From a virus (lineage: Duplodnaviria > Caudoviricetes): a DNA stretch of 62,457 nt. A program made the position numbers and the translations under genes. The notes beneath the pieces were generated by a model. It made no database searches. It was not told where the DNA came from and saw only the letters and a list, made by a program, of their open reading frames with translations. The DNA is taken from the IMG/VR virus record IMGVR_UViG_3300021468_000003, positions 1 to 62,457 of that record; one strand, 5' to 3'. This document shows positions 9,646 to 59,502 of this stretch, piece by piece; the stretch's first letter is position 1; every line of letters begins with the position of its first letter.

Positions 9646-9646
9646 T

Positions 9647-9811: not shown

Positions 9812-9812
9812 T

Positions 9813-10987: not shown

Positions 10988-10988
10988 C

Positions 10989-11605: not shown

Positions 11606-11614
11606 AATTCACCC

Positions 11615-12421: not shown

Positions 12422-12422
12422 C

Positions 12423-15865: not shown

Positions 15866-15866
15866 C

Positions 15867-15968: not shown

Positions 15969-15981
15969 TCAAGCCTCCACG

Positions 15982-16007
15982 AGCAAATTGTCAGCAAACA
16001 AATTGCT
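15982..16007. promoter_or_regulatory. 26-bp palindromic motif, copy 3
   Basis: AGCAAATTG-tcagcaaa-CAAATTGCT upstream of the RBS of the 15968 ORF. Confidence 0.6.
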
Positions 16008-27272: not shown

Positions 27273-27887
27273 CTATCTCACCGATCAAGTATGTTACTTT
27301 CTGGAGAACCTCAAGCTCGTCTTCGACCTCGAGAAGCCTCGCAACCTCTAGGATGCCCTGCGTCGAGGGCCCCATTGGGTCCGGCCCAAGGGTTTGCAAC
27401 ACTTCCCAAGCCTCAACGTTCGCTTGTCTGATGCCTGGCCAACACTTCTCGCAAGGCGTAGGTTTTCCTCTCTCAGCGAAAAACTCCCTACATTTCGGGC
27501 ACCAGAACTTAGTCTCACGCTTCTCCCTTATCCACCTTGCGAGCTCTTGGAGTTTTTTAGGTCTTCTTCAAACTCCTTCTCGTACTTTTCCTTAAGCATC
27601 CCTGCTTTCTCACTTATAAACTCCCGAAGGGGGTCGTTGTCGAAGATAGCTTCTCGCACGTCCCCATCAGCTTCGATCCCCTCGAAGTCTTCAAGCGTGT
27701 AATTGAAGATCTCGAACGCAATCGCCGCTTCATCGTAGTCATCGACAACCCTGTCTCCAACGACTACCTTCTTCCTGTACTTATTCATGATCTTTGCGAC
27801 TTGCGAGTGGTAGATAGGGCGGACTTTCACTCGCACACCGTCGCAAACATCAAACCAGACTCCCTCTTTATACCTCTTTAGCTTCAT
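27238..27887 (-). CDS. Tail assembly chaperone G (27528-27887) plus -1 frameshift extension GT (to 27238)
   Basis: A-AAA-AAC slippery heptamer at 27558-27552; the -1 frame is open for about 104 codons (CPKC...CEKC) up to the tape measure start. Confidence 0.8.
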
Positions 27888-31940: not shown

Positions 31941-33608
31941 TTACTTCCTCCTCATTGCTCTCATTTTCTCAAGTTCGATGACAGCCTCATGGCGCTGCAA
32001 GCCGTGCTCCTCAGCGTACTTCTCGACTTCCTCGTCACTGTAGTCGTCATCCTTCGGCTCGCTTACCTCAGTAGAGCCTTTCTGTGCGCCAAGGTCGTTA
32101 ATGACAGCCTGGAGCCTTGCGATCTCGTCAGCAATGGTGTCGATGGTTTCTTGTTCAACTTTGCCAAAGAGCGGAACCAGCATCTTGGCTGCATCCTCTC
32201 CGATTTTGGCTGTCATGTCCTTCCTAAACATTGTTTTCTGAAGCTCCATGATCCTCTTCTCAGTCACAGAGAAAGCCTCTCTCTTTCCTTCCTCGACCAG
32301 CTCTTTTGCCAGGTCAGGATACTTCTCCATCAAAATTTCTTTCGTGAGCTTATCACTCATTTCTTTTCCTCCTTCATCTTCTTTGATAATGCTTTCAAAT
32401 GAACCTAGTCTGTCAATCATGCCGACAGCGAGGGCTGCACGTCCAACGAGGACACCGCCCTGTCCAAAGTTATCAAGTACATACTTCTTATCGACGCCCC
32501 TGTTTTCAGCGACGGCTTCGACGAAAACATCTGCAATTGCGTCGAGGGTCTTGCGGACTTCGTCCTTCCCTTCCTTTGTGTTGATATCCGGCCTTTTGCG
32601 TGGGGCGTTGGAGCTTACGATTTCGACTGTGTCATCTTCTCGCTTGCGGAACGTAGCAACAACGCCTATACTCCCAACGAGGGCGGTCTCATCAGCTACG
32701 ATTTCACTCGCTGCGGAGGCAAGCCAGTACGCCGCTGATGCTGCAGAACCCTCAACGTAGGCGATAATCGGCTTTTTCTCCGCTCCCTGCTTGATGATCT
32801 TCGCTAACTCGTTGATCCCAGTGACTTGCCCACCAGGGGAATCGAACTTAAGGATCACCTTTTTGACGTTTGGGTCCTCGATGGCCTTGTTGATGGACTT
32901 CGCCAGCTTCCCTGTAGAGGTTGCCCCGCTTATCTCGGTGAAGAGGTTCGCATAGCGAAAGATCGGGCCTCTCACAGGGATCACTCCTACATCATCCCTC
33001 AACTCGAACCCTCCTCCATCTTCACCAACCTTCACAGCGAGGGCTTCTGGGTCCCCATTTCTCATCACAATGTCATACATTGTTTGGAGCCACGAAGGCT
33101 CAATAAGCCAGGGATCAGCAGCCATTGCGCCGATTGCTGAGGTCTTGATTGTAGCCCTGTGAGCTTGGAGGTGGTCGATGACATGTTGGGGCGCTTTCTT
33201 TCCGCTGCGGGCGCCATTCGCTTCAGACCACGCAGCCTTCAACCCTCCAGTGTGGAGTAGAAGTTCCCCGTCAACCCATATCCCATCATCATCTTTCTTA
33301 GTCCCACCCTTGACCCAATGGTGCGGATACTTCCACGTGGACTTCTTTCCTTCTTCTCCCATATCAGCGAAAGCCTGGCGAGGGAGCGCTGTCTTATCGA
33401 CTTCGCTCCACCGAGGCTCATTGTCCGCTGTCTTGCTATTGTGTCTGAATGCCATAGTCATATCTCCTTTTCTATCCTTGAGCTGTGCATTGCAGATGGC
33501 GTAACGCTGCTTTCTATCAGGATACTCCCGCTTCATTACCTCATCTGCCATGCACCGCTTAAGGAAGTCGTCTTTTTTCTCTCCTTTCCTAGGCTTCGGA
33601 ATCGGCAC
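31941..33608 (-). CDS. S49 (SppA/ClpP-like) prohead protease with N-terminal extensions and C-terminal scaffold
   Basis: DSPGG, AASAAYWLAS, GSIGV; GTG start at 33608 after GGAGG. Confidence 0.9.
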   Translation of the reverse strand: MPIPKPRKGEKKDDFLKRCMADEVMKREYPDRKQRYAICNAQLKDRKGDMTMAFRHNSKTADNEPRWSEVDKTALPRQAFADMGEEGKKSTWKYPHHWVKGGTKKDDDGIWVDGELLLHTGGLKAAWSEANGARSGKKAPQHVIDHLQAHRATIKTSAIGAMAADPWLIEPSWLQTMYDIVMRNGDPEALAVKVGEDGGGFELRDDVGVIPVRGPIFRYANLFTEISGATSTGKLAKSINKAIEDPNVKKVILKFDSPGGQVTGINELAKIIKQGAEKKPIIAYVEGSAASAAYWLASAASEIVADETALVGSIGVVATFRKREDDTVEIVSSNAPRKRPDINTKEGKDEVRKTLDAIADVFVEAVAENRGVDKKYVLDNFGQGGVLVGRAALAVGMIDRLGSFESIIKEDEGGKEMSDKLTKEILMEKYPDLAKELVEEGKREAFSVTEKRIMELQKTMFRKDMTAKIGEDAAKMLVPLFGKVEQETIDTIADEIARLQAVINDLGAQKGSTEVSEPKDDDYSDEEVEKYAEEHGLQRHEAVIELEKMRAMRRK

Positions 33609-34866
33609 TCCACCCTCCTGCTTGCAAAAACGGTTCGATGTCCTTGATCTGATCCTCATCATCCTCATAAGGGAGGTCAGCAATTGCTAGGAGAGCTTTC
33701 TCCATCGGGACAGTTGGGGTAATCACGCCGGTTTTGACGAGTCGAGCGACGAAAGATGCAAGATCTGCAAGGTCTGCGACGTTGGTTGAGGAGAAGCTGA
33801 TTTGTGGCGGGGTGATGTTGTTGTATTCGCAGATTTTAGCGATGATCTGGTTGTTTATGGTTTCCTCAATAGACCTGATGTACGCATCGCAGGCGGAAAG
33901 GAAAACTCGAATCATGGCTTCGATGTTCCCCTTGGAGGTGAGGGAGGAGGCACCTCCAGCGAGAAAGCTCTCTAGCAATCCTGCTGCCATTTCTGAGTTG
34001 TAGCGCTGGATAATGTCTGTTGTATTTATTGACGAAGTCCCGTCACTCCGCACGAGAGAGAATTGCCACCCTGCTGGGATGACGAGACCCTGTTGATTGT
34101 CTTTCCGGACGTTGCCGACTACGTCCACCGCCCAGTCAAGTGTAGCAGCAACGGCCGGATCGTAGTGAGGGGAGGACTCATCAGCCGCAGTAAAGTCGAA
34201 CCCCTCGGGGGCCTGGAGGAGAGGGAGGCCAGTTAGGTCTCTGTCAACTCCTGTAGCCTCGGCGGCTTCACAGGAGATTTTGTAGTAGTAAGGCTTGTAT
34301 AGGTGCCTGAGGAGGCTGATCCCATAGGGGGAGCGCCCCTCCTTGAGGAAGATGTGATGCACACATTTTTTGTACGGAATTTCGTGAGTGCCATCCGTTG
34401 CCTGCTGTACGACCTTGCCTTTGGAGTTGTTGATGGCGCTGATCGTGGGCTGGTGCAGGGGAATGACATCTTTTAGGATGACCTTCCCGTCCTCGACCGT
34501 CCAGACCCTTTCGCCGATGTAGAACCCGTAGGTGAAGGCTGAGGTGATGTCTTCGATGAGGCCCGTGATCCCCCCAGGGAGGGCCTCAAGCTGGGGGAGG
34601 ATGAAATCAACGTTCTCGCCGTCAATGTCAATAGCGACCCGCTTTATAACATTCTTGATTGAGAGTATGAGCCCTCCGACAATGGGCTCGTTTCTCTCCA
34701 TAACTCGAAACTTGTCGAGGCCATCGGGTGGAGAGAGGTCGTCCATGAACTCAAGATCAGGGAGACCAGATTGTTGCTCGTCATAGCCAGGCGACCCGTA
34801 GATGCGGCGGGATACGTTCTTGTCTTTGGATGTTGTCTTGCGACTGAAGATTTTTAGAAGTTTCAT
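33589..34866 (-). CDS. Portal protein (DUF935/Mu gp29-like)
   Basis: Follows terminase; PYGISLLRHLY, DRDLTGLP. Confidence 0.82.
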   Translation of the reverse strand: MKLLKIFSRKTTSKDKNVSRRIYGSPGYDEQQSGLPDLEFMDDLSPPDGLDKFRVMERNEPIVGGLILSIKNVIKRVAIDIDGENVDFILPQLEALPGGITGLIEDITSAFTYGFYIGERVWTVEDGKVILKDVIPLHQPTISAINNSKGKVVQQATDGTHEIPYKKCVHHIFLKEGRSPYGISLLRHLYKPYYYKISCEAAEATGVDRDLTGLPLLQAPEGFDFTAADESSPHYDPAVAATLDWAVDVVGNVRKDNQQGLVIPAGWQFSLVRSDGTSSINTTDIIQRYNSEMAAGLLESFLAGGASSLTSKGNIEAMIRVFLSACDAYIRSIEETINNQIIAKICEYNNITPPQISFSSTNVADLADLASFVARLVKTGVITPTVPMEKALLAIADLPYEDDEDQIKDIEPFLQAGGWSADSEA

Positions 34867-34879
34867 GCTCCCCTTTTTG

Positions 34880-34905
34880 AGCAATTTGTCGGCGTGCAAA
34901 TTGCT
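34880..34905. promoter_or_regulatory. 26-bp palindromic motif, copy 4 (perfect arms)
   Basis: AGCAATTTG-tcggcgtg-CAAATTGCT just upstream of the portal RBS. Confidence 0.65.
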
Positions 34906-34975: not shown

Positions 34976-37498
34976 TTACACGATAAATTTCCGGTATTTC
35001 CCAAACTTGTGGCTTCGTTTCTTGGTGTGGAGTCTACGAAAAATGGACACAGCCTTGGCAGGGACGTTCCTACAAGCTGTGAGAGCGAGGAAGTTCTCAA
35101 CAGCCTCCGTCATCATCATGGCGTCGGCATAATCGGGGGAGAAACCTAGGCGGGCTTTGAATGCGATTTTGTCCTCCATCGCTATTGGGCCTTTTGAATA
35201 GTCAAAGCGAAGGTTCGCAAGCTCTTTCTTCAGCCTCTCCGGAGGGTCAACGGGGAAGTTGTAGGTGGGGAAGTTCTTATGGAGCTTATAGTAGTTCTCC
35301 GCTCGTTTGTCCTTGTACATGAGCTGATGATGGGCTTTTTCAGGCCCTACAAAGCCGAGGACAGGGAAGCGGTTGAGCTTCGCCAGGTTCGAGTAGGTAC
35401 CTGCGCCAAGCCCGTGGGCGTCAATGACTGCACAAAACGGACGGTTGATATACATGGTTCTCCAGATTCTCTCAACTTCATCAGCAACGAAGGTGGGGTC
35501 AGTCTTATAAAACTCATCCCACCGAACAAAAGAGTTGCCTATGCGGTGACAGAAGACACAGACGTCCGGCCCTCCTCCGGCAACGTCCACACTGAGGATA
35601 ACTGGGCCCTCTGTCATGGAGCGCTGAGTTGCTACGACTTTGTCGTAGACCTCTGGAGCCACAACGACGCTCTCATTGACGTCAATTGGCAGCCCCAAGA
35701 CCTTCGCCCTGTACATCGGAGAGTCTTTGCCGTAAATGTGGATAATTGTTTGGATGAACTCCTCATCGACGAGTGGGGAGTCCATGACGTTGTAGAAGAG
35801 AACCTTGAAGTCCTTTCCTTTCCCTTCAGGGTCGGAAATGACATCGTAGTAGAACCCTCCGGTGGAGACGGGGTTGGAGATGAGGAGGATGTAGGAGTTC
35901 TTATCGGTCATTGTGCCCACGAGGGCGGTGAAGACGGGATCAGGCACACCACTGTTGCCTGTCCAGTAGGCAACTCCGTTCCGTCGCACATAGATAGTAT
36001 GATGAGGTTCAGTTGAAACGCACCAAATTCTTCCTTTATAATGAATTGGTTTTATGTTGTGTTGCCTCACTTTAAAATCAGTAGAGGAGTTTGAAACTAT
36101 TGACACTACATAGTCATTATCTGAAGTTGTAGCAAAATGGTCTTTGATGAATTTTACTTGTCCTTTAATATTTCTTCTCGTTATTGTTGAGTACAGTCCG
36201 CACTTGATTGCCACTTCTTGAATATCGTCAGCAAGTTGTTTTGACATAGTATATATTATATGTCTGTTTTCAGTTTGAGTGTAACCGTCGCCTTTTATCA
36301 ATGCTGCTAGCAACATAAACAAGTATTTTTTATCAAGATTCTTTACGTATAATGGGATTTGTTTGTTTTTCGCTCCTTTTCCACAAGCAAGCAACTCGTT
36401 GTATAGTTGACTACAGTAAATTTTGATGTCGTTGTTGTGGATAGAGTACTTGTATCCTAGCCTATCTAACAGATTGCAAATAGCAGTTCTGCCTTGTTCA
36501 TCTGCTTGTGTTATTCCCACGTATCTATCTTGGATCAAGTAGCCCTCAGAGATATACCAACCAAGCAATTGGCACCAATCACTCAACTCTACAGGTTTTG
36601 GCGGATAGTATTTTCTTGGAGTTCTGTATTCCTTGAGTATGTACAGTTTCTCGTCTTTCCCTTTAAAATTGACTGTTTTAGGAATAAGCCAAGGAGTCTT
36701 CTTTGAGATGTCAAACTCACACATTTCTTGTATTCTGATTCCTGTGTTTCGCTTGGCTCTAGTATTACGTCTTCTGAAGACGACATTGTGGTGAGGAGAA
36801 AACATGAAACTCATGGTTCTGGACTTGTAATAGTACATGAGACCATCGTAATCTTCGTATTTGAAGATTCCTGTGATTGGCTTGTATTCAGCTTCCTCAG
36901 TTAGTGGATCCATTGTGAGGACTTTATGGTAAGTTTGGATTGAGTCAATTGTTTGCCAACCGTAGTCAGTAAGTATCTCAGTTTTATCGTCGAAGCAAGC
37001 CTCGTCCACCTCAATGAGGATTGAGGGAGCATGGAAGCCCGCAAGAGTATCATTGAGTTCCCTCTTATCCTTGCTAACTGTCCTCGCAGTTGCATACCAC
37101 TCACGGAAGCCCTCGACGTACAGCCTCCCCTTCACACGCTTGAACAACTTCGCAAGCCGGCACCTCTTCAACCAGGTGTCGATCTCCGACCAAAGGACGT
37201 CATTCAGCTGTTTTGCTGTGGGAGCGGTCGTGGGGACTTTTGCGAAGGGATGCGTAGTGAGGAACCAGAGGATGAGGATGGCGGAGACTGCGGTCTTTCC
37301 TATTCCACCACCTGCTGAGACGCATACATACCTGTTTTTAACGAGATGATGGGCAATCTCCTCCTGTTGCCAGGTCAACCCTGAGAGTTTGAGGCCCTCG
37401 AAGGAGATGTATCTGTTTGCCCAGCCGACGGGGTCATCCCTGTACTGCTGTGAAATCTCATTTACTATCTTTAACGTCTTTCTTTGTTTTTGATTCAC
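34976..37498 (-). CDS. terL: Terminase large subunit containing an intein
   Basis: AGGGIGKT Walker A, EVDEA Walker B, ISNP, SVDVAGGG nuclease motif, SPDYADA. Confidence 0.93.
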   Translation of the reverse strand: MNQKQRKTLKIVNEISQQYRDDPVGWANRYISFEGLKLSGLTWQQEEIAHHLVKNRYVCVSAGGGIGKTAVSAILILWFLTTHPFAKVPTTAPTAKQLNDVLWSEIDTWLKRCRLAKLFKRVKGRLYVEGFREWYATARTVSKDKRELNDTLAGFHAPSILIEVDEACFDDKTEILTDYGWQTIDSIQTYHKVLTMDPLTEEAEYKPITGIFKYEDYDGLMYYYKSRTMSFMFSPHHNVVFRRRNTRAKRNTGIRIQEMCEFDISKKTPWLIPKTVNFKGKDEKLYILKEYRTPRKYYPPKPVELSDWCQLLGWYISEGYLIQDRYVGITQADEQGRTAICNLLDRLGYKYSIHNNDIKIYCSQLYNELLACGKGAKNKQIPLYVKNLDKKYLFMLLAALIKGDGYTQTENRHIIYTMSKQLADDIQEVAIKCGLYSTITRRNIKGQVKFIKDHFATTSDNDYVVSIVSNSSTDFKVRQHNIKPIHYKGRIWCVSTEPHHTIYVRRNGVAYWTGNSGVPDPVFTALVGTMTDKNSYILLISNPVSTGGFYYDVISDPEGKGKDFKVLFYNVMDSPLVDEEFIQTIIHIYGKDSPMYRAKVLGLPIDVNESVVVAPEVYDKVVATQRSMTEGPVILSVDVAGGGPDVCVFCHRIGNSFVRWDEFYKTDPTFVADEVERIWRTMYINRPFCAVIDAHGLGAGTYSNLAKLNRFPVLGFVGPEKAHHQLMYKDKRAENYYKLHKNFPTYNFPVDPPERLKKELANLRFDYSKGPIAMEDKIAFKARLGFSPDYADAMMMTEAVENFLALTACRNVPAKAVSIFRRLHTKKRSHKFGKYRKFIV
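35954..36997 (-). mobile_element. Intein with LAGLIDADG homing endonuclease (348 aa)
   Basis: Begins CFDDKTEILT right after DEA; ends YWTGN before Ser; LGWYISEG and LIKGDG blocks; AT-rich insert. Confidence 0.93.
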
Positions 37499-37898: not shown

Positions 37899-38265
37899 TT
37901 GCAGCCTCCGAAAGCAGGAAGTCCATGATGGTTTTTGCAGGCACGACAGGCGCTGAGGGGTGGATCTCCTTCCAAAGGTCTTTCTCCAAAGCAAAAACCC
38001 TGTGCTGCATTCCTGTGAGAATGGGGGAGTAGCAAAAGACCTCGCAGTCCTCCATAAAAGGACGGTGGATGTTCTCAACCCACCACTCAGCAGTCTTTGG
38101 CAATCTGGGATCTCTCTTCATGTCTACGAACCACGCAGCGGGGGCAACTGGGATGGCGCCTGCGACAAGCACCCTCCTGCAGATGAGTTCAATTTCATCA
38201 AGTGAGCGGAGCTTCGCCCTGGGATTCGTAGTGTTGATCTGTCCGCTCACGTACACTTTTATCAT
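37876..38265 (-). CDS. DUF4406 / nucleoside deoxyribosyltransferase-like protein
   Basis: KVYVSG...P..P...MEDCEV pattern. Confidence 0.5.
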   Translation of the reverse strand: MIKVYVSGQINTTNPRAKLRSLDEIELICRRVLVAGAIPVAPAAWFVDMKRDPRLPKTAEWWVENIHRPFMEDCEVFCYSPILTGMQHRVFALEKDLWKEIHPSAPVVPAKTIMDFLLSEAANGLQRVC

Positions 38266-38623
38266 AGAAAGCCCTCCGGATTTTCTCCAGTGCCCAGAAC
38301 GTGGGAGTGATGCCCGATTCGGGGCATGGGATTACTTCAACGTTATCAATTTTGCGGAGCCCTGTCAAGGACAGGTTTAACCAATTTGCAATGAACGGGA
38401 CGATGGCGTCCCTCGGGAGCTCCATACTGAATATGCCGGACGCCCCCACCCTTCGCCAATATGGGTCGTTTGGGTCAAGGTCGGGGATGGACGAATCAAT
38501 AAGGGCACGGACGACCTTTGAAATGTTCATCCCTGTCAAACGACTCACCTTCTCCAGCTTCATCAACTGCTCCTCCGTAACAGCGAAACTCAAGGTTTTT
38601 GCGTAGTTCTTTTTCTTCTTCAT
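38198..38623 (-). CDS. Ribbon-helix-helix DNA-binding protein
   Basis: LSFAVTEEQLMKLEKVSRLTGMNISKVVRALI. Confidence 0.65.
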   Translation of the reverse strand: MKKKKNYAKTLSFAVTEEQLMKLEKVSRLTGMNISKVVRALIDSSIPDLDPNDPYWRRVGASGIFSMELPRDAIVPFIANWLNLSLTGLRKIDNVEVIPCPESGITPTFWALEKIRRAFYDKSVRERTDQHYESQGEAPLT

Positions 38624-39048
38624 AAGTCCTCCTCATAGGAATCAAGGATTTTTTTGTCAAGTTCGTTTATGATGTTTGCTATGTCCTTCGTGAATGCTTT
38701 CTTTTTGGCGGTGATATTAAACACCCTCTCATTGATCGTGAAGTCGAAGTCATGGTGCTTGCTTATGTTTGGGGTGATGGAGACAACTTTCGAGTACTGA
38801 TCTAGGTAGGAGAGAAACTCACCCACGGTGGCACTCTTCTTCAACGCCCACTCCACCTTCACAAGGTTCACCCCAAAAATCTTCCAGATCTTCAACTTCC
38901 AAGCCTCATCCTGCGGATAGCACCCGTTTGCGAGGATTGTTCTCATGAGATCGCTAAGCGAGACATTGTGCCTCTCTGCTTGTTCCTTAAGGGATGTATA
39001 AAGGGTCGCTGGGACCCTCAAAGAAATCTTCCTCTCTCCTCTTCTCAC
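38620..39048 (-). CDS. Ribbon-helix-helix DNA-binding protein
   Basis: ISLRVPATLYTSLKEQAERHNVSLSDLMRTIL. Confidence 0.7.
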   Translation of the reverse strand: MRRGERKISLRVPATLYTSLKEQAERHNVSLSDLMRTILANGCYPQDEAWKLKIWKIFGVNLVKVEWALKKSATVGEFLSYLDQYSKVVSITPNISKHHDFDFTINERVFNITAKKKAFTKDIANIINELDKKILDSYEEDL

Positions 39049-40478: not shown

Positions 40479-42793
40479 ACCTTGAGCTCATTGTAGACTT
40501 TTTCTATATCGTTCAAGTCTTTGACCTCTTTGAGTGTACCCCAGGAGTAGCCGAGCTCGAAATCGAGGGGTACTACGAATGTGAGGCCGTTGACTGTTAT
40601 AGGGACTTCAACCAGCTTCTTCATTGCATACATGCACTTTATGATGGTTTCAAGGTCATCGTCTACTTGGCAGAGGATGGAGTCGTAGACTGAGAGACGA
40701 AACTCCCAGGAAGGGAGATCCTCTTCGTAAATGCGTATCAACCCCTCGTTGAGGTAGTCCGCAGCAGTGGACTGGGGTTCTGCTGCGATGGCCTCACGGA
40801 ACGTTTTGTCGTTGAGGGGCCCGAAGAACTGGATTACTCTGCCAAAGACAGTGCGGATCACCCTTTCCCTCTTGACTTGCCTCTCTACCCGCTGCTGCCA
40901 CTCCCTCAGACCAGGCCGAATCTCGTAGTACCTTGCTTGGAGCTCCGCAGCTTCTCTTTCGGAGCAACCGAGGATAGCAGCCATTAGGCGCTTCCCTAGG
41001 CGGTAATGTGTGCCGTGCGCTATGCGTTTCGCTGTGTAGCGGTGGGTGGCTTTATCAACTTTGTCGTAAGGGATATGGAAGAGGAGTGCCGCTGTCTCTG
41101 TGTGAAGGTCTGTCTCATCAAACTTTCGCAACCATTCCTCATTACCGCTAAGCGCAGCGACAATGCGGGCCTCCACTTGGGAGAGGTCGGCCTGAATGAA
41201 AATTTTGCCCTCATCAGCCTTGTAGAAGGTGCGAGTTTCTTTAGGGATGTTTAGCAAGTTTTTCCCTGAGCCTGTGATGCTTTCTGAGGACGCAAACCTG
41301 CCGGTGTAAGTGCCGTGGATCTTCAGTGCTGTTCGTATCCTTATGTCGGGGTCGTACTTGAGGTTGTAGAAGTCTCGCTTCTTCTTTGTTTCCCTGAGCT
41401 TTCTTATGAGACCAATGTGCAGCTTGAAGGGTGTCGGCATCCTCTCCAACTTCTGGAGCTTCTCATCATTTGTCGTAACCTTCCCATGTTTCTTTTGCAC
41501 GGGGAGCTGCCAGTCCTTGTAGATGAGCTTCTTGAGCTGAACGTGAGAATTTGTGTTGACATCGCCTATTGTTTGCTCCTTGATTGTTTCAAGGACTTCG
41601 ATTGCCCGCTCATTTTTCTTGCGGAACTCTTCAATGGCGTACAGATCGAGTTTTGTGCCCCGAACCATAGCGAAGAGGCAGGGGCGGATGAGGGACATCA
41701 TGCGGTTGTAAGCCTTGCGGGTGCCCCACTCATCTATCTCTCGCTGTTGAACTTCCATTATCTCGTATGTCAAGCAGCAGTCCTTCCCGCAGTAGATGTA
41801 GAGGGAGTCCCAGTCGACGGCGCCCCTCTTCACATCTTTCAGATAGTCCTTGACATCTTCGCCTTCCTTCAGGTCCTTCCAGTAGGGCTCGTTTGTGTAG
41901 ATGGAGGCGCAGAACGCTAGGGACTTGAGGAGCGTAGGGTAGATTGCGTGCTGGGCCAGCATGGTGTCGCAGTAGATGTTATTGTTGAGGATTTTGTAGT
42001 AGTAAGCGTTGTGCATACAGTCAAAGAGGGCGTTGTGGAAGACCTTGGGTGTGGAGGAGGCACAGAAGCGGGAGAGTTGGCGGAGGACAATCGGGTGGCG
42101 GAGGAGCTCCTTGGAAAGAACAAAGGCTTCTTTCTTGGAGGTCGCCATGCCATAGGCAACCATCACCGGCCCAGTTGTCTCGATGTCGCACACCACAGAA
42201 GAGGGGTAGTCTGTGAGGTTGTGAAGGAGTTTCAGAGCCTCGGTCTCGTTCGTAACAGTGCGAATGTTGCGCTCAGGATAAAGAATCTCTGGGAATTTGG
42301 ACTCACGGGCAGCCTTCTTCAAATCAAGGATGCAGATAGGCTCGAAGCGTCCGTTCCCCCTTATGATGTTCCCTGGGTGGATGATGGGGAGGACTTTGAG
42401 ACCTGGGACGAGGGTGCAAGGGAGGATGGCACCACGATACTTCGTAATTTGGGGACGGTTTGTGAGGACGTTCAGCGCCTTTGCACCTACAGCGATGACA
42501 AGGTTGAGACCTTCGGCCTTCAGTCGCTCCAGGTCCTCGGCTAGTTGCCTCCGGCCTTCAGCAATCACTTCCTGGGACAGGGTGTCATATCTGTTCTTGA
42601 ACGGACGCTTGTGGACAGTGTTCGTCACGAAGCACTCATGCCACTTGAGGCCAGCGAAACGGAACCACTTCCGAAGAATCTGTCCCTCGTACCCAATGAA
42701 AGGCTTGCCCCTGCGGTCTTCCTCTTCCCCAGGCGCCTCGCCGACGACGCAAATCTTAGCTGGGTTTTGTGGGACCTGTTGGATTAGGCGCAT
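40475..42793 (-). CDS. Family A DNA polymerase with N-terminal uracil-DNA-glycosylase-like domain
   Basis: VVGEAPG...PFIG...TN...HP UDG motifs; DIET, FHNALFD exonuclease motifs; TGRFAS, DLSQVEAR, KRIAHGTHY, VYDS polymerase motifs. Confidence 0.92.
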   Translation of the reverse strand: MRLIQQVPQNPAKICVVGEAPGEEEDRRGKPFIGYEGQILRKWFRFAGLKWHECFVTNTVHKRPFKNRYDTLSQEVIAEGRRQLAEDLERLKAEGLNLVIAVGAKALNVLTNRPQITKYRGAILPCTLVPGLKVLPIIHPGNIIRGNGRFEPICILDLKKAARESKFPEILYPERNIRTVTNETEALKLLHNLTDYPSSVVCDIETTGPVMVAYGMATSKKEAFVLSKELLRHPIVLRQLSRFCASSTPKVFHNALFDCMHNAYYYKILNNNIYCDTMLAQHAIYPTLLKSLAFCASIYTNEPYWKDLKEGEDVKDYLKDVKRGAVDWDSLYIYCGKDCCLTYEIMEVQQREIDEWGTRKAYNRMMSLIRPCLFAMVRGTKLDLYAIEEFRKKNERAIEVLETIKEQTIGDVNTNSHVQLKKLIYKDWQLPVQKKHGKVTTNDEKLQKLERMPTPFKLHIGLIRKLRETKKKRDFYNLKYDPDIRIRTALKIHGTYTGRFASSESITGSGKNLLNIPKETRTFYKADEGKIFIQADLSQVEARIVAALSGNEEWLRKFDETDLHTETAALLFHIPYDKVDKATHRYTAKRIAHGTHYRLGKRLMAAILGCSEREAAELQARYYEIRPGLREWQQRVERQVKRERVIRTVFGRVIQFFGPLNDKTFREAIAAEPQSTAADYLNEGLIRIYEEDLPSWEFRLSVYDSILCQVDDDLETIIKCMYAMKKLVEVPITVNGLTFVVPLDFELGYSWGTLKEVKDLNDIEKVYNELKV

Positions 42794-44058
42794 TTTTTCT
42801 CCTCGATGTAAGCAATTGTTGCTGAGATGCTTTTGTTGTAATGACGTTCGAGCTTTTCGCAGCCGATGAACTGCCTGTTGGTGTCGTAACACGCTCGGAT
42901 AGTGGAGCCACTCCCGCAGAAGACGTCGAGGACGGTGTCGCCTGGGGAGGAGAATGTCTGGATAATGTCGATGATGAGGGCCTCCGGCTTTTGAGCAGCG
43001 TGAAAGCGCTTGCCTGCTGGAGGAGGTGGGTAGGTGAAGATGTTGGAACGGCCTTGTTTGGTGAGACGGGCGTCAGGGGTAGTGTATGCGTACAGGGCGA
43101 TTTCGGCGGCACACCCGACACGGAGGGTTGATTGAATTGACCGCCCCGTTGCCCCCGATTTGACCCATATCAACGGCACCCTTGGAACGTAGAACCCTGC
43201 ACGTTCAGCCATGACACACACGGCCTCATACAATTGATATGACGTCCACAAAACCATGTACCGCCCGTCACGAAGGACACGGCGGAAATGGGGCATACAT
43301 GCCTTCAGCAGGGCGACGATGTCAGCCTGCTCGTCTTCGTACGCTTCCTCCGGAGAGGCGACAACATCATCCAAGTTGATGCCATACGGTGGATCAGTGA
43401 GTACTAGATCCACCGAGGCATCGTCGAGGGTGGAGAGGAAGGAGACGGCATCCCCTAGGCGATAGTTCGCCAGAAGGCCCTCGAAGTCAATTTTAGCTTT
43501 CGCAGCCTTCGCCTTCTCAACTGCACCGAGTATCTTCTTTTTTTCTTCAGCATCCATCCTGCGAACAGCTTCACTCACGGAGGTTGCGTCCTTAACAAGC
43601 TCCTCGTTGTCAGCGATCTTCAGGAGCCGACTAACCATAGCAGGGTCTTTGCCCAGGAGTTTCGCTGTGTCCTTCACAGTCCAACCGCCAGTGTGTCCTG
43701 GGACGGGGCGCCCCTTCTCTTCGACGCCCCTCTCATGGATAGCTTTGACCAACCGAGCGATTTCGACGGGCTTCAGGTCCGAGCGTTGGATGTTCTCTTC
43801 GAGCTGGGCCACGAGGTCGTCGATGCCCTCCCTCAAGATGAAGTGTTTTCCCTCCTCCAGGTAGGTTAGTCCGAGGTACTCGGTGAGGGCAATGAAGCGA
43901 CTGCGGCCCGCTCTCACAATGTAGGAGTCCCCGACTTTCTCCACAAGGATTGGCTGTAAAAGCCCGACGTTCTTGATGGAGAGGGCCAGGTCTCCAATTC
44001 CTTCTCGCTCTTCCCTGAAGTCGCTTTCGAAGATAAATTGCTCAGCTGGTACACGCAT
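42784..44058 (-). CDS. ParB-like N-terminal domain fused to N4/N6 DNA methyltransferase
   Basis: SIKNVGLLQPILV...AGRSR; TDPPYG; QKP; LDVFCGSGST. Confidence 0.9.
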   Translation of the reverse strand: MRVPAEQFIFESDFREEREGIGDLALSIKNVGLLQPILVEKVGDSYIVRAGRSRFIALTEYLGLTYLEEGKHFILREGIDDLVAQLEENIQRSDLKPVEIARLVKAIHERGVEEKGRPVPGHTGGWTVKDTAKLLGKDPAMVSRLLKIADNEELVKDATSVSEAVRRMDAEEKKKILGAVEKAKAAKAKIDFEGLLANYRLGDAVSFLSTLDDASVDLVLTDPPYGINLDDVVASPEEAYEDEQADIVALLKACMPHFRRVLRDGRYMVLWTSYQLYEAVCVMAERAGFYVPRVPLIWVKSGATGRSIQSTLRVGCAAEIALYAYTTPDARLTKQGRSNIFTYPPPPAGKRFHAAQKPEALIIDIIQTFSSPGDTVLDVFCGSGSTIRACYDTNRQFIGCEKLERHYNKSISATIAYIEEKKCA

Positions 44059-46858: not shown

Positions 46859-46895
46859 GGAGCGCTCCAACACAATGGGGGTTCTTTGTTTTTAA

Positions 46896-47409
46896 TGGCT
46901 CACTTATCTACTCTGGTTTCCTTAGCGCTCGTGGTTCACTTGAAACCCTTTGGTTTTCTTGCATTCAATGGTTCACTCCATAGTGATGGATTCCTTGAGG
47001 AATGTGATTCATTCGTCGCTCTTGGGTTTCTTTTGCCAGTTGATTCACTCCATTTCCCTGGTCTCCTTGTTGACAATGATTCACTTAGCGGCCTTGGTTT
47101 CCTTCATGAGCGTGGTTCGCTCGACAACGATGGTCTTTTTGCCGATAGTGGCTCACTCTCAGCCCAAGGGTTTCTGTCCTGACATGGCTCACTTTTTGCT
47201 CGTGGGTTTCTTTTGTTTGCTGGTTCACTTCCCCGAACTGGGCTTCTCGTGCACAATGGTTCACTTCTCGAAACTGGTTTTCTTGTTTTTGATGGTTCAC
47301 TTTTATAAGATGAGCTCCTTAATATGTCTGATTCACTCTTACAGAATGGATTTCTTAGATTGTGTGATTCACTTCTAAAGACTGGTTTCCTGCCTTATTG
47401 TGATTCACC
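46896..47409 (-). ncRNA. TIGR-like guide RNA array: 14 units of 36 nt (one unit 37 nt)
   Basis: Minus strand: AGTGAAYCA-N9-AGRAAMCCA-N9 repeated with unique spacers; starts 4 nt after the tas stop codon. Confidence 0.88.
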
Positions 47410-47412
47410 TTT

Positions 47413-48354
47413 TTAGTAAACCCACCCCCTTTCCTCAGGCATAATCATCCTTTCATGCCCCAAGTGTGCCACGGGGTAAACTGGGTCTGTCGGCAATCCA
47501 GCGATCGTCCGCCCTACATACCACCAGTCGGCGAGAAAGTGCTTCATTATCGCTCGCATAGCTGCGCTGTGACGGTGCGAAGGCTTCGTCTCACACCAAG
47601 GCTTCTCTATGAGCTTCCCCTGAGTGTTTCTTGTTTTGACGATGCGACGGCTGTTCTCAAGCCGCTTCTTCACCCTGTCGTAGACCTTGCGGTAGGGCCC
47701 TCGGCTCTTGACTTGGGAGTCTGCGAGAGTGTAGAGGGCTGTCCGGAGGGTCTTGTTTCCGCCGGAGGCTTCGCCTTTCGTGTACCTCTCGTGGGAGGCG
47801 CAGTGGAGTCCAGTGTACTTCCACAAGGAAGACGCATGTTTCGCTTTTTCAAGCCGGATGTACACTAAGCAGAAGGCAACCGTCATAGGCCCTACGCCTC
47901 GCACCCCAAGAGCAGCTTTCGCCAACGGGGAGTCGATGGACTTCACGAACTTCTCCACAGCCCGACTCCTCTCCCTCAACTTCAACTCGACCCCTCGGAG
48001 CTGGGCCTCGAGCCAGGCGACAGTGTCGGGGTTGAGGGAGTCGGTTTGGCGCTTGTAAGCGAGTAGCTGGTTTGCGAACTTGTTGCGCAACTTCAGGATC
48101 TGCTGGCGGTCGTCAACCAGGCGTTTTAGTTCGTCGAGGTCGGCAGGGCGGATGACAAGGTTGCCGTGACGCTGCATGTGGGCAACGGGGTGGACAACCC
48201 TGGTGTTTTCGTCTGTGTAGGTTCCACCTTGTGCTTTTGGAGTAATGCGGTCGGTGTCGAAGAGAGCTGTCCACTCCTCTAGCAAGACGTTTGAGAGGGC
48301 ACATTCGCCGTTTTGCCGCTCTTTGATTTTCTTCTTGAGAGCCTCTTTTGCCAT
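47413..48354 (-). CDS. tasH: TasH-like protein: degenerate HNH plus IS110-C-terminal/Nop-like RNA-binding domain
   Basis: DRITPKAQGG...EN...H..AH HNH-like N-terminus; coiled coil; GVRGVGP, SSLWKYTGL, GNKTLRTAL, AAMR..MKHFL; no DEDD RuvC; adjacent array. Confidence 0.8.
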   Translation of the reverse strand: MAKEALKKKIKERQNGECALSNVLLEEWTALFDTDRITPKAQGGTYTDENTRVVHPVAHMQRHGNLVIRPADLDELKRLVDDRQQILKLRNKFANQLLAYKRQTDSLNPDTVAWLEAQLRGVELKLRERSRAVEKFVKSIDSPLAKAALGVRGVGPMTVAFCLVYIRLEKAKHASSLWKYTGLHCASHERYTKGEASGGNKTLRTALYTLADSQVKSRGPYRKVYDRVKKRLENSRRIVKTRNTQGKLIEKPWCETKPSHRHSAAMRAIMKHFLADWWYVGRTIAGLPTDPVYPVAHLGHERMIMPEERGWVY

Positions 48355-48366: not shown

Positions 48367-50196
48367 CTAGTACCTGATGATAAGGTTGCCTGAACGCTCC
48401 ACCTCGATGGCGTCCATCACTTTAAGGAAGGTCGCTTTCCCAAGGACGTTCTGGGCCACCTTTTGCTTTGCGAGGATGTCCTCCCTCGTGCAGATGCCCA
48501 TTTTCCAGAGAGACTCCGCCCTCTTTCTCCCAATTCCTGGCAACCTGACGAGATCAATGAGCTTCGCAGGAACGCCGGACTTAAGCATCATCTCTAGCAC
48601 CTCCGTGTACTCTTTGTTGAGGCCCGCAATCCGCAGGGCGGCGCAAATCCGCTCTACATCGGCGAGGAACCCGAAGACCACGGTGGAGACGAAGTCCGTG
48701 ACGGGCTTTCCTGAAAGCCAGTGGTAGATTGCGGTTGCGAGGATTGTCTGCGCTCCGTAGGGGAGTTTGATGACGTCCTTGAGGGTGTCAGGGATGAAGG
48801 TGTCGTACGCCAGCGAAGGGATGTTGGCGAATGCTTTTGCAATGAGGGTTGGGGCAGTTGGCTTCGAGCTCAAGTTTGCCTTCAGGTGGTACAGGTCTAT
48901 GGGGTCCACGTACATGAGGGCAGCGGCTCGGCCCACAGAAGAGACTGTGGGGAAGTCCTTAGGCCCACGGACGATCCCGTATTTGCGCAGGAGCTCCATT
49001 GCCTCAGCGGGGGCATCCCCAAGCAGATCCTGGTGGGCCGCAAGAGTGGAGTCGAGGAAGTTGGAGATGTCATGCGCATCCATCCCCTCACGGGCGATAA
49101 ACGACACAAGGTGGAAGTATATCCTCCTCGGGAGGACGCTCTTCACCTCTGGCACGTTCATTACCTCTTCACGCATCTTCTCAAAGTACCAGTCCATGAA
49201 GATGTAGTAGACCACGCCCTTCTCACTGAGGCCGTATCTGCCGATTCTCCCTGCCTCTTGTTTGATGTCAGCTGGGTCGACGAGGGTGGGGCCTCGGTGG
49301 CCGCCCACAATGACGCCCACGTCTGCCGGCAAGTTGACACCGTACGCTAGGGTGGAGGTTGAGACCATCACCCGCAAGCGGCGCTCCCTGAAGGCCTCCT
49401 CGTAGGATGCTCGCTTCTCCTTCGGCACCTTACTGTAGTGAAAGGGGCAGTCCAGCACCTCTGCGAGCCTCCTTCCCGTTCCTATGGAGTGGACGAAGAT
49501 GAGGAACTGGGAGCCTGGATGGCGGTTGAGGATGCGAGCTATCTCCTCAGTCGCCTTTGCCAAGAAGCCCCAGTTCGTATCCGGCGCTCGGATGAAGTGA
49601 TGCTCCTGGATGACGGGGCGCCAGTCTGTTTTGACGACTCTCGTGGGCTTGGAGTTGAGACGTGTGAGCCAGGAGCCGAGCTCATCTGCGTTTGGGATTG
49701 TTGCGGAGAGGAAGATGATGCGGGCCTCAGGGTTGATTTGGGCGAATCTCGTTAGGCCGATCTCAAAGGCGTCCCCTCGTCCATACATGGAGAGCATGTG
49801 CGATTCGTCGCTGACGAGGGTGCCGATGGAGCGGAGCCAGCGCCTCGCTCCTCTCGTCTTCGAGTCCAAACACTCCGTGGTCATGAGAATGAGCTGCTCA
49901 TTGACAGTGACGCCTGGGCGGGAGTGATCACTTGTGAAGGCGACTCGCTTGTAAGGGACGTCTGCCCAGGAGTGGAGTTTTTCGTTTGTGAGGGCTTTCA
50001 GGGGGCTAAGGTAGAGGGCCTTGCGCCCGCCCTCGAGGGTGGGGAGCATGAACTGCTCAGCGACGATTGTCTTCCCGCTTGAGGTAGGAGCAAGGACTAC
50101 GAGGTTGCAGTTCTCCTCTACAAAGGGCCACGTTAGGCGCTGCAGTGGGTTGTAGGTCAGGCCTTTTGCTTTATGATAGTTAAGCATCTCGTTCAT
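48367..50196 (-). CDS. Ski2/Hel308-like SF2 DExH helicase
   Basis: APTSSGKT, PLKAL, DESH, SAT, WRPV, TSTLAYGVNLPA, QEAGRIGR; C-terminal HhH LPGIGRKRA. Confidence 0.9.
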   Translation of the reverse strand: MNEMLNYHKAKGLTYNPLQRLTWPFVEENCNLVVLAPTSSGKTIVAEQFMLPTLEGGRKALYLSPLKALTNEKLHSWADVPYKRVAFTSDHSRPGVTVNEQLILMTTECLDSKTRGARRWLRSIGTLVSDESHMLSMYGRGDAFEIGLTRFAQINPEARIIFLSATIPNADELGSWLTRLNSKPTRVVKTDWRPVIQEHHFIRAPDTNWGFLAKATEEIARILNRHPGSQFLIFVHSIGTGRRLAEVLDCPFHYSKVPKEKRASYEEAFRERRLRVMVSTSTLAYGVNLPADVGVIVGGHRGPTLVDPADIKQEAGRIGRYGLSEKGVVYYIFMDWYFEKMREEVMNVPEVKSVLPRRIYFHLVSFIAREGMDAHDISNFLDSTLAAHQDLLGDAPAEAMELLRKYGIVRGPKDFPTVSSVGRAAALMYVDPIDLYHLKANLSSKPTAPTLIAKAFANIPSLAYDTFIPDTLKDVIKLPYGAQTILATAIYHWLSGKPVTDFVSTVVFGFLADVERICAALRIAGLNKEYTEVLEMMLKSGVPAKLIDLVRLPGIGRKRAESLWKMGICTREDILAKQKVAQNVLGKATFLKVMDAIEVERSGNLIIRY

Positions 50197-50378: not shown

Positions 50379-50633
50379 CTACCAAATAACAAGTTGATCT
50401 ATGGTGAAGACCCTGCAATAGTATCGTTGTTGAAGCAACTCTATATAGTCCAGCAGGTCTTCTCTGTCGAGTCGTCTAAGGCCCTTCTCTACGAGAATCG
50501 TTGCGCCTTTTACGCCACGCAGCTTCTCCAGACCCGTCACATACCTCCATCTCTCCCGTGGGATGCCTAGCTTCCCTGTAAGGAAGTGGGCTCTCTCAAG
50601 AGAGGACGCCACAACGAAAATATAAGGGTTCAT
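50379..50633 (-). CDS. Hypothetical protein
   Basis: AGGAGG RBS. Confidence 0.6.
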   Translation of the reverse strand: MNPYIFVVASSLERAHFLTGKLGIPRERWRYVTGLEKLRGVKGATILVEKGLRRLDREDLLDYIELLQQRYYCRVFTIDQLVIW

Positions 50634-50644: not shown

Positions 50645-50670
50645 AGCAATTTGTTCACAAACATTTTGCT
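50645..50670. promoter_or_regulatory. 26-bp palindromic motif, copy 5
   Basis: AGCAATTTG-ttcacaaa-CATTTTGCT abutting the RBS of the 50633 gene. Confidence 0.6.
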
Positions 50671-51170
50671 CAGGTGTACAACTCCACCTCCATGAGGACG
50701 TCCTCTGGAGAGTAGTTGCCGCTTTCAGCCATTTCTCGCACCTTTCTCTTCACCCTCCTCCACCAGTGGTCGGCCCGAGTATAGGGGATGCCCATCACAT
50801 CTGCTGCGTCTCGGACGCACCCCTTCTCGAAGAGGATGCGAGTGAAGCGGCGAGTCGGGCCCCACTCCTTAGGGAGAGCGACAACGAAGGTCTCGGGTGG
50901 GTGCCTCTCCTCTCCGGCGACATTCTCCACAGCTTCAGCATCGTACTCCACAAGGGAGTCGGCCTTGTACCGCCTTGCGAGGTCGATCATCCGGTTGCGG
51001 AAGGCAAAGAAGAGAAGCTGCTTGCTCACATACATGCCTCTGGCTTCGAGCTCCATCCACTTAAGCATGCACTCCTGCACTCTGTCTTCAAAGGAGAGCT
51101 GCCACAGGTTCGAGAAGGAGTTGGCGACCCGCTCGGCTATGGCGACTACTTGTTCATAGGGAACTGCCAT
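50670..51170 (-). CDS. ECF-like sigma factor
   Basis: EDRVQE...FRNRMIDLARR (region 2) and C-terminal HTH (RDAADVMGIP). Confidence 0.65.
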   Translation of the reverse strand: MAVPYEQVVAIAERVANSFSNLWQLSFEDRVQECMLKWMELEARGMYVSKQLLFFAFRNRMIDLARRYKADSLVEYDAEAVENVAGEERHPPETFVVALPKEWGPTRRFTRILFEKGCVRDAADVMGIPYTRADHWWRRVKRKVREMAESGNYSPEDVLMEVELYT

Positions 51171-52203: not shown

Positions 52204-52980
52204 TCACACTCTAGCTAGGTAGCTCCAATCAGTCGTCATTACCTTTGCTATCATCATCTCCATCCCTTCGGAGAAGGACTCCGCCACTGAGCGTTTGCGC
52301 CCCCAGAGGGCCTCCTTCGACCGGCTAACAACTGCACGCTTCAAGTTAAAATCGGTGATTCCGCAGGAAGAGCAGACCTCAACAACTGCCTCTTCGAGCT
52401 CTGCCACCTTCTTTCCACGCCTCCTCCTCTCTTCGACGGCCTCCTCCAAAGGGGCGTCCACGAAGTCCTTATCAAGCAGTTTTACTACCGTCTCGACGAG
52501 GGACGGCGACTTTAGGTTGTACTCCATGAAGGAGAAGGCGATTGTCAGGAGGTAGGACTCGTATCCGCAGGAGCGGGCAAGCTCCTTTTCCTCCATACTC
52601 GGCACCTCTGCGAGCTTGTGCATGTAGAGGTTGTAGAGCTTCGTTGCCTTGTCCTTGATGTTGTCCCCTTTTTCGATGTTGAAGATGATGGGGAGCTCCC
52701 TCACCCAGCGAGGGGCGACGATGCAAGGGACTTCGACGTCCCCTCCCTTAGACTTGTGCAAGCCAGCAAGGCGGTGTTGACCGTCCACAACCTCGAAGGT
52801 GCCATCCTCCCCAGGGACGACAAGCAGGGGGATGAGGAAGCCGTAGAAGATGCTCCCGCTTAGCTTGTTCACCAGCGTCACTGACAAGTTTCGCTGGAAG
52901 GGCGAGTTCTTGAGTAAGTGCCTCGGGATGAGGCGAAATTCCAGTTCTACGCCTTGCCTGGGTTCTTTAAACTTCATCAT
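52204..52980 (-). CDS. ParB/Srx-like domain protein
   Basis: PFQR...GFLIPLLVV...EVVDGQHRL. Confidence 0.75.
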   Translation of the reverse strand: MMKFKEPRQGVELEFRLIPRHLLKNSPFQRNLSVTLVNKLSGSIFYGFLIPLLVVPGEDGTFEVVDGQHRLAGLHKSKGGDVEVPCIVAPRWVRELPIIFNIEKGDNIKDKATKLYNLYMHKLAEVPSMEEKELARSCGYESYLLTIAFSFMEYNLKSPSLVETVVKLLDKDFVDAPLEEAVEERRRRGKKVAELEEAVVEVCSSCGITDFNLKRAVVSRSKEALWGRKRSVAESFSEGMEMMIAKVMTTDWSYLARV

Positions 52981-53173
52981 CACCTCCCGTTATTCTGTCA
53001 AAACATTCCTCACAAAGGCCACTTATCAGATACTCTCTGCGACCAGCTTCAGAGTAGCAATGGTCAAGCGCAGGCCTTCCGCATTGGATACATACTCCCG
53101 CAGCTATTGCTTCCCTTCGAGATTGTCCGAAAATCTCCTCACTTAGTTTTTCCTTTAGATCGTTGAACTTCAT
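52967..53173 (-). CDS. Zn-finger small protein
   Basis: CIQC...EYLISGLCEECFD. Confidence 0.65.
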   Translation of the reverse strand: MKFNDLKEKLSEEIFGQSRREAIAAGVCIQCGRPALDHCYSEAGRREYLISGLCEECFDRITGGDDEV

Positions 53174-55909: not shown

Positions 55910-56147
55910 TTCCTACCTCCTTTACCTCGACGAGAGCCCCGTCCTCGATGAGCTTGATCTCGACCTCCCGAAGGAACAGCGCCAGGTAATAGCACCCACC
56001 AAACACCGAGCCTATCCGTTGCCCGTAGTGCGAAAGGAAGAGCGCCTTTGGATGGGCGACTGTTGCACTCACTCCTCCATAGTTAAGAGTCAGTTTTTTG
56101 TTGTCGTAAATAAGGATACCGTCTCCTTTAAACTTCACCTCGACCAC
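55899..56147 (-). CDS. Paralogue family C, member 2
   Basis: LIYD.KKL...V.ATV.H...EDG shared with 55664-55909. Confidence 0.6.
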   Translation of the reverse strand: MVEVKFKGDGILIYDNKKLTLNYGGVSATVAHPKALFLSHYGQRIGSVFGGCYYLALFLREVEIKLIEDGALVEVKEVGNEV

Positions 56148-59137: not shown

Positions 59138-59452
59138 CTACTTCACTCTCCTATACAGGAGAGCTCCTCCTCCTCCCGTAAAGTATTCACTGACCCCGAT
59201 CCACTCACCGTCTGGGTCACTCACAAAATCCTTTCCCTGGTAGACCTCATCATTCACTACCAGGAAGAGACGGCCATACCCAACATCCTCGAAGAGGGCA
59301 ACAGAGTCTTCTGAGGACGAGCTTGCTTCCATCAAGAGACGGGGCTTCCCTATCCTTTCCCACTCTTCAAGTTTGATGAATCTGTTTACAAGGACACATT
59401 GGATGCTGGACACCTCATTGATTTTTTCTAACAACTTCTCTTTGGTAGCCAT
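59138..59452 (-). CDS. Hypothetical protein
   Basis: AAGGAGG RBS. Confidence 0.6.
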   Translation of the reverse strand: MATKEKLLEKINEVSSIQCVLVNRFIKLEEWERIGKPRLLMEASSSSEDSVALFEDVGYGRLFLVVNDEVYQGKDFVSDPDGEWIGVSEYFTGGGGALLYRRVK

Positions 59453-59466: not shown

Positions 59467-59492
59467 AGCAATTTGCACGCAAACAATTTGCT
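59467..59492. promoter_or_regulatory. 26-bp palindromic motif, copy 6
   Basis: AGCAATTTG-cacgcaaa-CAATTTGCT abutting the RBS of the 59452 gene. Confidence 0.62.
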
Positions 59493-59502
59493 TCCGCCGA
59501 GC

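Follow-up and report, generated by a model that had tools for sequence, protein, structure and literature searches.

A TIGR-TasH guide that resembles its phage's own recurring palindrome may be aimed at a flipped allele in related phages

The window, meaning the whole stretch of DNA analysed here, has 62,457 bp and constitutes a complete virus record. Minus-strand genes span the phage genome from approximately 60.5 kb down to 8.7 kb. The gene tasH lies in the replication module of this block, with the helicase on one side and a Cas4-like exonuclease on the other, and is followed by a TIGR array. The genes and features of the locus and its surroundings are as follows.

From approximately 60.5 kb, head of the minus-strand block: early genes, function unassigned.
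48367-50196, minus-strand block: helicase of the replication module.
Replication module: helicase, Cas4-like exonuclease, Sak4, SSB, ParB-methyltransferase, DNA polymerase and primase.
47413-48354, minus strand: tasH, 313 aa, with an N-terminal HNH domain and a Nop domain (phmmer against the PDB).
46870-47409, minus strand: TIGR array immediately following tasH, in the same orientation; 15 units, each of 36 nt except one of 37.
47194-47229, minus strand: unit 6 of the array (guide 6), spacer A at 47213-47220 and spacer B at 47195-47202.
Late minus-strand genes: terminase, portal, head and tail genes, and endolysin.

Approximately 2.8 kb downstream of the array, and in the same gene direction, a 424-aa protein is encoded in which a ParB-like part, at the N terminus, is joined to a DNA methyltransferase (42784-44058, minus strand); ParB-like genes adjoin some TasA loci described by Faure et al. 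2025 (PMC12045711). A 259-aa early protein (52204-52983, minus strand) shows a weak, sub-threshold match to the N-terminal domain of the GmrSD restriction endonuclease.

The 313-aa product of tasH matches the TasH of Salicola phage CGphi29 over residues 8-312 (phmmer against the PDB, E value of 2.1e-99), with CGphi29 TasH structures such as PDB entries 9W03 and 9W04 among the matches. The two proteins are identical at 162 of 308 aligned residues (52.6%), or 53% at full length, and the combination of HNH and Nop domains is that of SpTIGR-TasH, the CGphi29 system described by Faure et al. 2025 (PMC12045711). Pfam returns only a weak Transposase_20 match (21.7 bits). The catalytic histidine of SpTasH, H54, aligns with H59 of the window protein, D30, R31, N45 and H58 being likewise conserved; the pre-tigRNA processing pair Y289/H296, named as such for SpTasH (PMC13421893), corresponds to Y293/H300. 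The H54A mutant of SpTasH is nuclease-dead (Guan 2026, preprint 10.64898/2026.08.11.744272). Conservation of H59 and of Y293/H300 indicates that the window TasH is probably an active, self-processing nuclease, and leaves a non-cutting TasH unsupported. The position of the gene differs between the two phages, tasH of CGphi29 being located among head genes rather than in the replication module. A search of genome_contigs for relatives of TasH found none and therefore gave no clue to the host.

Within each unit of the array, spacer A (8 nt) lies between an edge repeat of 9 nt (AGTGAACCA) and a loop repeat of 10 nt (AAGAAACCCA), and the loop repeat is followed by spacer B (8 nt) and a single purine. 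Both repeats resemble those of the CGphi29 array, with which the window array also shares the 36-nt unit, the 8+8-nt spacers and the position immediately after the gene. UG and CCA are both present in the edge repeat, and the loop repeat ends in CCA and starts with AAG, as does the loop repeat of CGphi29; UG and CCA are motifs defined on TasR, where CCA closing a repeat is termed box C and UG opening one is termed box D (PMC12045711). Judged by its gene and its repeats, the locus is a TIGR-TasH system as defined by Faure et al. 2025 (PMC12045711) and a regular member of that family, for which tigRNA processing and cleavage are predicted. Unit 13 (46942-46977) has 37 nt instead of 36, so that the register of the last two units is off by one base. 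Comparison of the window unit at 46940 with the unit at 11442 of contig L001 shows a spacer A (CGAGCGCT) that is common to the window and the related contig G001, and spacers B that differ, which hints that half-units can be replaced or diverge separately.

Along the plus strand, positions 47185-47229 read as an edge repeat, T, TTTGCTCG, the loop repeat, TTGTTTGC and an edge repeat. The minus-strand spacers of unit 6 are GCAAACAA(A) for spacer A and CGAGCAAA(A) for spacer B. The preliminary description had read these spacers correctly except for the ninth base of each, which is a conserved base of the repeat; the guide is therefore 8+8 nt, as in SpTIGR with its 16 variable nucleotides (8+8; Faure et al. 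2025, PMC12045711). It had also counted 14 guides, where we count 15 units, and had cautioned that the target geometry was chosen after the fact. The geometry used here, spacer A joined without a gap to the reverse complement of spacer B to give a 16-nt target (GCAAACAATTTGCTCG for guide 6), has an independent basis, because it is the sole order that gives the published 3' overhangs (PMC12045711), and the numbering of SpTasH targets from 1 to 16 fits it (PMC13421893). The assignment of edge and loop repeats, and hence the pairing of spacers in each tigRNA, rests on the resemblance of the array to that of CGphi29, the last repeat of which, at the terminator, is an edge repeat. If spacer B of one unit is paired instead with spacer A of the next, just 1 of 14 pairs has a match of at least 14/16.

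Guide 6 resembles a 26-bp palindrome, composed of the arms AGCAAWTTG and CAAWTTGCT around an 8-nt centre, of which the window holds six copies. These are listed with the level of their match to guide 6.

2154-2179: upstream of 2196-2429 (plus strand); 10/16.
8294-8319: upstream of 8336-8695 (plus strand), an AdoMet-decarboxylase-like gene; 10-12/16.
15982-16007: flanked by ORF 16006-16485 and the next gene of the tail region; minus-strand match 14/16, plus-strand match 13/16.
34880-34905: upstream of the portal gene 33589-34866 (minus strand); 11-12/16.
50645-50670: upstream of gene 50379-50633 (minus strand), at the head of the replication module; 13/16 at 50657-50672 (plus strand).
59467-59492: upstream of the 104-aa early gene 59138-59452 (minus strand); 14/16 at 59479-59494 (plus strand).

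The palindrome, described earlier as recurring, does so well beyond expectation: its six matches compare with 0.09 expected by chance, and six were reached in none of 100 shuffles. Copies occur among the early genes, in the replication, head and tail regions and in the block of plus-strand genes, and every one of them ends 9-16 nt ahead of a start codon, just before a GGAGG-type ribosome-binding site. Mismatches in the arms do not co-vary, and the centre occurs in either orientation relative to the gene; an RNA hairpin was therefore rejected, and the palindrome is treated as DNA, putatively a symmetric site for some factor. A sigma-70-like promoter is located upstream of only one of the six copies (34880-34905), and a promoter search near the TIGR array gave nothing notable. 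Candidates for a palindrome-binding protein were limited to two sub-threshold ribbon-helix-helix matches (RHH_3 and CopG_antitoxin) in the adjacent minus-strand ORFs 38198-38623 and 38620-39048, whose products are possible DNA-binding candidates for such a factor.

Guide 6 aligns with the palindrome in one fixed register, comprising motif positions 13-26 and two flanking bases. The three matches reported previously were all recovered. At 59479-59494, spacer A is matched at 8/8 and spacer B at 6/8, with mismatches at B1 and B2; the minus-strand match to the 15982 copy extends over 15980-15995, with mismatches at A3 and A4; and the 50645 copy is matched at 13/16. Matches of 13/16 are also present at 15994-16009 (plus strand) and at 36941-36956 (minus strand), the latter site being outside all palindrome copies. 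Three other guides have one 14/16 self match each.

27634-27649, minus strand: near-target of guide 8 (unit at 47157), mismatches at A6 and A7, spacer B 8/8.
25591-25606, plus strand: near-target of guide 10 (unit at 47085), within 25125-27272 (minus strand), a tape-measure-like gene; on the frame as read here, each of the two mismatches falls at a third codon position.
56070-56085, plus strand: near-target of guide 12 (unit at 47013).

A scan of IMG/VR for the palindrome pattern returned 49 stretches, among which the only true relatives were G001, L079 and L094; a further contig, L067, was rejected as a relative on the basis of weak similarity (13 HSPs, approximately 40%) and a 12/16 copy in another context. 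A megablast search of the locus against the phage collection gave no match. G001 is a 41-kb contig that is collinear with window 19044-62445 at 81-95% identity, save for one short end block at 71%. Its TasH differs from that of the window at 11 of 313 residues, and approximately half the guides of its 15-unit array are common to both phages. Guide 6 is among those kept, with one change at A1 (ACAAACAA / CGAGCAAA), and this variant matches at 14/16 the 50645-type copy of G001 itself, a copy identical to that of the window. The best-matched copies thus differ (59479 and 15980 in the window, 50645-type in G001), so the link to the motif family is kept and that to one particular copy is not. The exchange of approximately half of the array, with guide 6 retained, is turnover typical of a conflict repertoire. 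For the other guides, the guide 10 near-target and guide 10 itself are identical in the window and G001, and a third relative (L056) has another wobble variant at this near-target; the G001 site homologous to the guide 12 near-target matches at 13/16.

The homologous palindromes at window 59467-59492 and G001 37469-37494 agree at 22/26 when one is reverse-complemented and at 19/26 when compared directly, the arms matching the reverse complement at 18/18; the other two copies common to the window and G001 are identical (26/26). A whole-palindrome inversion at the 59467 locus is suggested by this comparison. Elsewhere among TasH phages, a 97-kb phage contig (G008, the contig of L004 at approximately 9400-14700 and of loci L138) encodes a TasH that is 60% identical to that of the window and has TIGR mini-arrays of 2-6 units each, at least five in number and separate from one another. 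The same conserved element of approximately 30 nt, which starts with AAGCGTT and contains GAAGG.TG..TTCAGCAAAA, follows four of these.

The other two relatives are 95-kb phage contigs that lack TasH (G002/L079 and G003/L094). Each carries a single palindrome copy, in a locus homologous to window 15831-16467, and each of these copies matches guide 6 at 14/16. The halves of a perfect target are split between them, L094 having the first 14 nt followed by AC, and L079 having GCTGACAATTTGCT followed by CG; the perfect target is the two halves combined. In the window, inversion of the central 8 bp of the copy at 15982-16007 raises the minus-strand match to guide 6 from 14/16 to 16/16, whereas the same operation leaves the other five copies at no more than 13/16.

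The single public run found to contain this phage (run X1) consists of DNA contigs from a hydrothermal-vent metagenome; it is probably the window's own sample and cannot count as independent of it, and chimeras may occur among its contigs. At a threshold of at least 80% likeness, extra contigs cover window 15913-16176, with four at position 15973, and most of the remaining 11.8-kb stretch has few such variants. With up to four variant contigs and approximately twice the surrounding depth, this segment of the tail region is hypervariable; it extends across the 15982 palindrome and the end of ORF 16006-16485 into the start of the next gene. At the near-targets 25591-25606 and 27634-27649, none of the listed differences introduces a variant letter, an observation to which no weight is given. 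One of these contigs (record 1 of the run, 494 nt, depth of 6.5) has among its listed differences 15992 C>T, 15993 A>C, 15996 A>T, 15997 A>G, 16009 C>T and a C inserted behind 15979, which leave it with the L079-type centre in reverse complement. Reconstructed from these differences, its allele on the gene strand reads GCGAACAATTTGCTCG, which matches at 15/16, only A3 being mismatched; further differences may lie within the 16 bp. This variant therefore appears to carry the flipped centre.

Matches to guide 6 thus reach at most 14/16 in the phage itself, 14/16 in the relatives and 15/16 in one reconstructed variant. No relative was found with a 16/16 target, either by exact 16-mer and flipped-allele scans of IMG/VR or in the JGI metagenomes. 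The flipped-allele pattern occurs nowhere in IMG/VR, and in the JGI metagenomes the left arm of the palindrome together with the 14-nt core retrieves only the G003 contig.

On our preferred reading, to which we assign a probability of roughly 0.5, co-circulating relatives carry an allele of the palindrome against which guide 6 is directed, and the phage itself is spared by two adjacent mismatches. Guide 6 would be part of an ordinary, probably nuclease-active TIGR-TasH system, the array being expressed and processed into tigRNAs. Its cognate 16-bp target would be an allele of the 15982 palindrome with the central 8 bp in the opposite orientation. The phage's own copy, having the other orientation, would present adjacent mismatches at spacer A positions 3-4, and in relatives or variants with the flipped form TasH would bind and cut immediately ahead of a ribosome-binding site. 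The resemblance to the other five copies would be a by-product of the common 9-bp arms.

Mismatch data for SpTasH are in line with such sparing. Most single mismatches strongly reduce cleavage and adjacent double mismatches abolish it (Guan 2026, preprint), and both 14/16 self sites of guide 6 carry adjacent double mismatches (A3/A4 at 15980 and B1/B2 at 59479); self would thus be spared. By the same token, since most single mismatches are already strongly detrimental, even the 15/16 allele may go uncut. The preliminary description had offered, as one of two options, that guide 6 targets this operator in relatives competing with the phage, self being protected by mismatches. This is the option that fits better, given the 16/16 match after the flip and the 15/16 variant, although a 16/16 allele is missing from the relatives.

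The same sequence relation would result if the spacer pair had originated as a copy of the 15982 palindrome locus, whether in the phage or in one of its ancestors, and either the locus or the spacer had changed later, leaving a guide with no present target. The failure to find a perfect target in relatives is what such a history would leave behind, and the discussions of Faure et al. 2025 and Xu et al. 2026 treat the route of TIGR spacer acquisition as unknown. We nevertheless regard this origin as unlikely, because guide 6 is retained in two phages whose array units are otherwise approximately half exchanged, and because 14-15/16 alleles circulate in relatives, apparently also in the same sample.

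A regulatory role was the other option of the preliminary description, which had proposed self-regulation by a non-cutting TasH; with H54 conserved as H59 and Y289/H296 as Y293/H300, that premise is lost. In a broader form, the guide 6 ribonucleoprotein would bind the phage's own palindromes uncut, above all at 59479-59494, and would block transcription or compete with the palindrome-binding factor. The location of all six palindromes 9-16 nt before a start codon and the conservation of guide 6 in G001 speak for it. So do several results on related systems: spacer A engages first, a complex of SpTasH with only the spacer A duplex having been seen, and a reporter is repressed by nuclease-dead SpTasH (Guan 2026, preprint); transcription is repressed by TasA and by dead TasR (Xu 2026, preprint). 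Binding without cutting at the 14/16 self sites is thus conceivable. As the purpose of guide 6, however, regulation appears improbable. TasH keeps its catalytic histidine, and among the 12 site orientations of the six copies guide 6 reaches 14/16 in just two and no more than 11 in six. The best-matched copy is not the same in the window and G001, the other three near-self guides match inside coding regions rather than at gene starts, and the 16/16 match obtained by flipping the centre would be left unexplained.

Chance resemblance between an A/T-rich 16-mer and an A/T-rich repeated motif has more in its favour for a single match than for the pattern. A 14/16 match is common, 3.8-4.8% of random real 16-mers having one in this genome, and the caution voiced earlier that one such hit among the guides can arise by chance was to that extent justified. 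Matches at this level also come from three other guides and from several control geometries: the reverse complement of spacer B followed by spacer A gives at least 14/16 for 2 of 15 guides, and a 2-bp gap for 3 of 15. None of the 15 guides reaches 14/16 with a 1-bp gap, with A+B on one strand or when reversed, and a 9+9-nt geometry gives no match of at least 15/18 in the window.

The caution does not extend to the pattern of guide 6, which has two matches of at least 14 and five of at least 13. In the shuffled-guide control that had been proposed for it, two matches of at least 14 or five of at least 13 occur in 0.045% of 20,000 shuffles of guide 6; the corresponding value is 0.2-0.37% for 20,000 real unrelated 16-mers, a null set that took in contigs chosen for holding the target or the motif. 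These motif-independent statistics, 0.045-0.37% per guide, amount to approximately 1-5% over 15 guides. At least four matches to palindrome copies are found for 0.01% of 20,000 real 16-mers, a statistic that was defined after the motif had been seen, which is a point in favour of coincidence. Among 210 re-paired guides, at least five matches of 13 or more occur in two and at least two matches of 14 or more in none. For the array as a whole, 4 of 15 guides have a self match of at least 14/16, with five matches in total; re-pairing of spacers A and B (73,533 derangements) gives P = 0.0017 for at least four guides and P = 0.00005 for at least five matches. 16-mers taken from moderately related phages have a 14/16 match in the window in 21% of cases, compared with the 3.8-4.8% of random real 16-mers.

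In other TasH phages, self near-matches are found for 0 of 11 guides of CGphi29, 0 of 12 of G006, 0 of 5 of G007 and 2 of 16 of G008 (null 9.6%). They are not a general property of TasH, and the window differs from SpTIGR-TasH both in their number and in having one guide tied to a repeated palindrome. Coincidence also leaves unaccounted for that the flip repairs both remaining mismatches at once, in only one of the six copies, and that the variant contig moves towards guide 6 and not away from it. We therefore consider chance a poor explanation of the resemblance, hardly probable on these figures.

The exact guide 6 16-mer is present in 47 IMG/VR contigs of approximately a dozen unrelated families (counted from flanks); in none of them is it part of the palindrome, and none is similar to the window (blastn, tblastx). 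The exact 16-mers of the G001 variant, guide 10 and guide 12 occur in 14, 24 and 19 IMG/VR contigs, with no homologous context at the site. L172, the only contig with a tblastx match to the window (2 HSPs), was rejected as a target relative because the context of its 16-mer is unlike the window's site. One group of 24 related contigs (among L009-L055, GC of 0.52) holds guide 6 at 16/16, and one of its members, L022, combines the 16/16 match (5372-5387) with a 15/16 match to guide 10 (1177-1192) 4.2 kb away, in a hairpin-forming stretch that in five others matches at 14/16; none of the 210 re-paired guides reached 15/16 in this family. All 47 loci had been screened for a second match, so that one at 15/16 is unsurprising (rough estimate of 0.2-0.4), and it was judged not significant. 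That the true target is such an unrelated phage family, with the exact 16-mer in a conserved gene, is very improbable, since the four guide targets give 14-47 contigs each, which is chance level, and the family shows no similarity to the window.

Targeting of a flipped allele in relatives, the reading preferred here, can be set beside three known kinds of system. Virus-borne mini-CRISPR arrays directed against related viruses are the nearest functional analogue: as described by Medvedeva et al. 2019 (PMC6858448), a short guide array is carried by a virus, and the guides are seemingly aimed at close relatives rather than the host. Those arrays rely on host Cas proteins, whereas TIGR-TasH of the window has its own effector, and the window guide matches relatives at 14-15/16 only, none perfectly. 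In TIGR-Tas repression (Xu et al. 2026, preprint 10.64898/2026.09.09.750476; SpTasH H54A, Guan 2026), a Tas ribonucleoprotein near a promoter or gene start silences the gene, and the palindromes of the window are likewise at gene starts. The repressors described there have no nuclease activity and act on fully matched targets, unlike the window TasH, which keeps its catalytic residues and has imperfect self matches.

The third comparison is with marker exclusion in T-even phages. There, a homing endonuclease of the phage cuts the allele of a relative, and the phage's own allele is immune through a few base differences. In the window, an RNA guide together with the orientation of the palindrome centre would confer specificity; the comparison concerns exclusion, not gene conversion.

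According to the discussions of Faure et al. 2025 (PMC12045711) and Xu et al. 2026 (preprint, September 2026), it is not yet possible to say what TIGR spacers target in nature, because guides of 16-18 nt give many false matches and most loci lie on fragments. A full-text literature search found no paper reporting a natural TIGR-Tas target. The present locus provides a specific, testable candidate, singled out jointly by the complete genome of the phage, by a close relative whose array is shared in part and by variant contigs of the same sample. Tentatively, it may represent the first natural protospacer of a TIGR-Tas system, with TasH excluding co-circulating relatives at a regulatory palindrome and telling self from non-self only by the orientation of an 8-bp centre. 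The prediction can be tested in a plasmid assay that compares the phage's own allele with the centre-flipped one.

If true, inversion of the centre would preserve the symmetric arms and the function of the site while creating two adjacent mismatches to the guide, and would thus be a one-step escape, which would explain the several variant contigs at the 15982 locus in the sample. It would also support a role of TasH in competition among closely related phages, and would show how simply a palindromic site can escape a dual-spacer guide.
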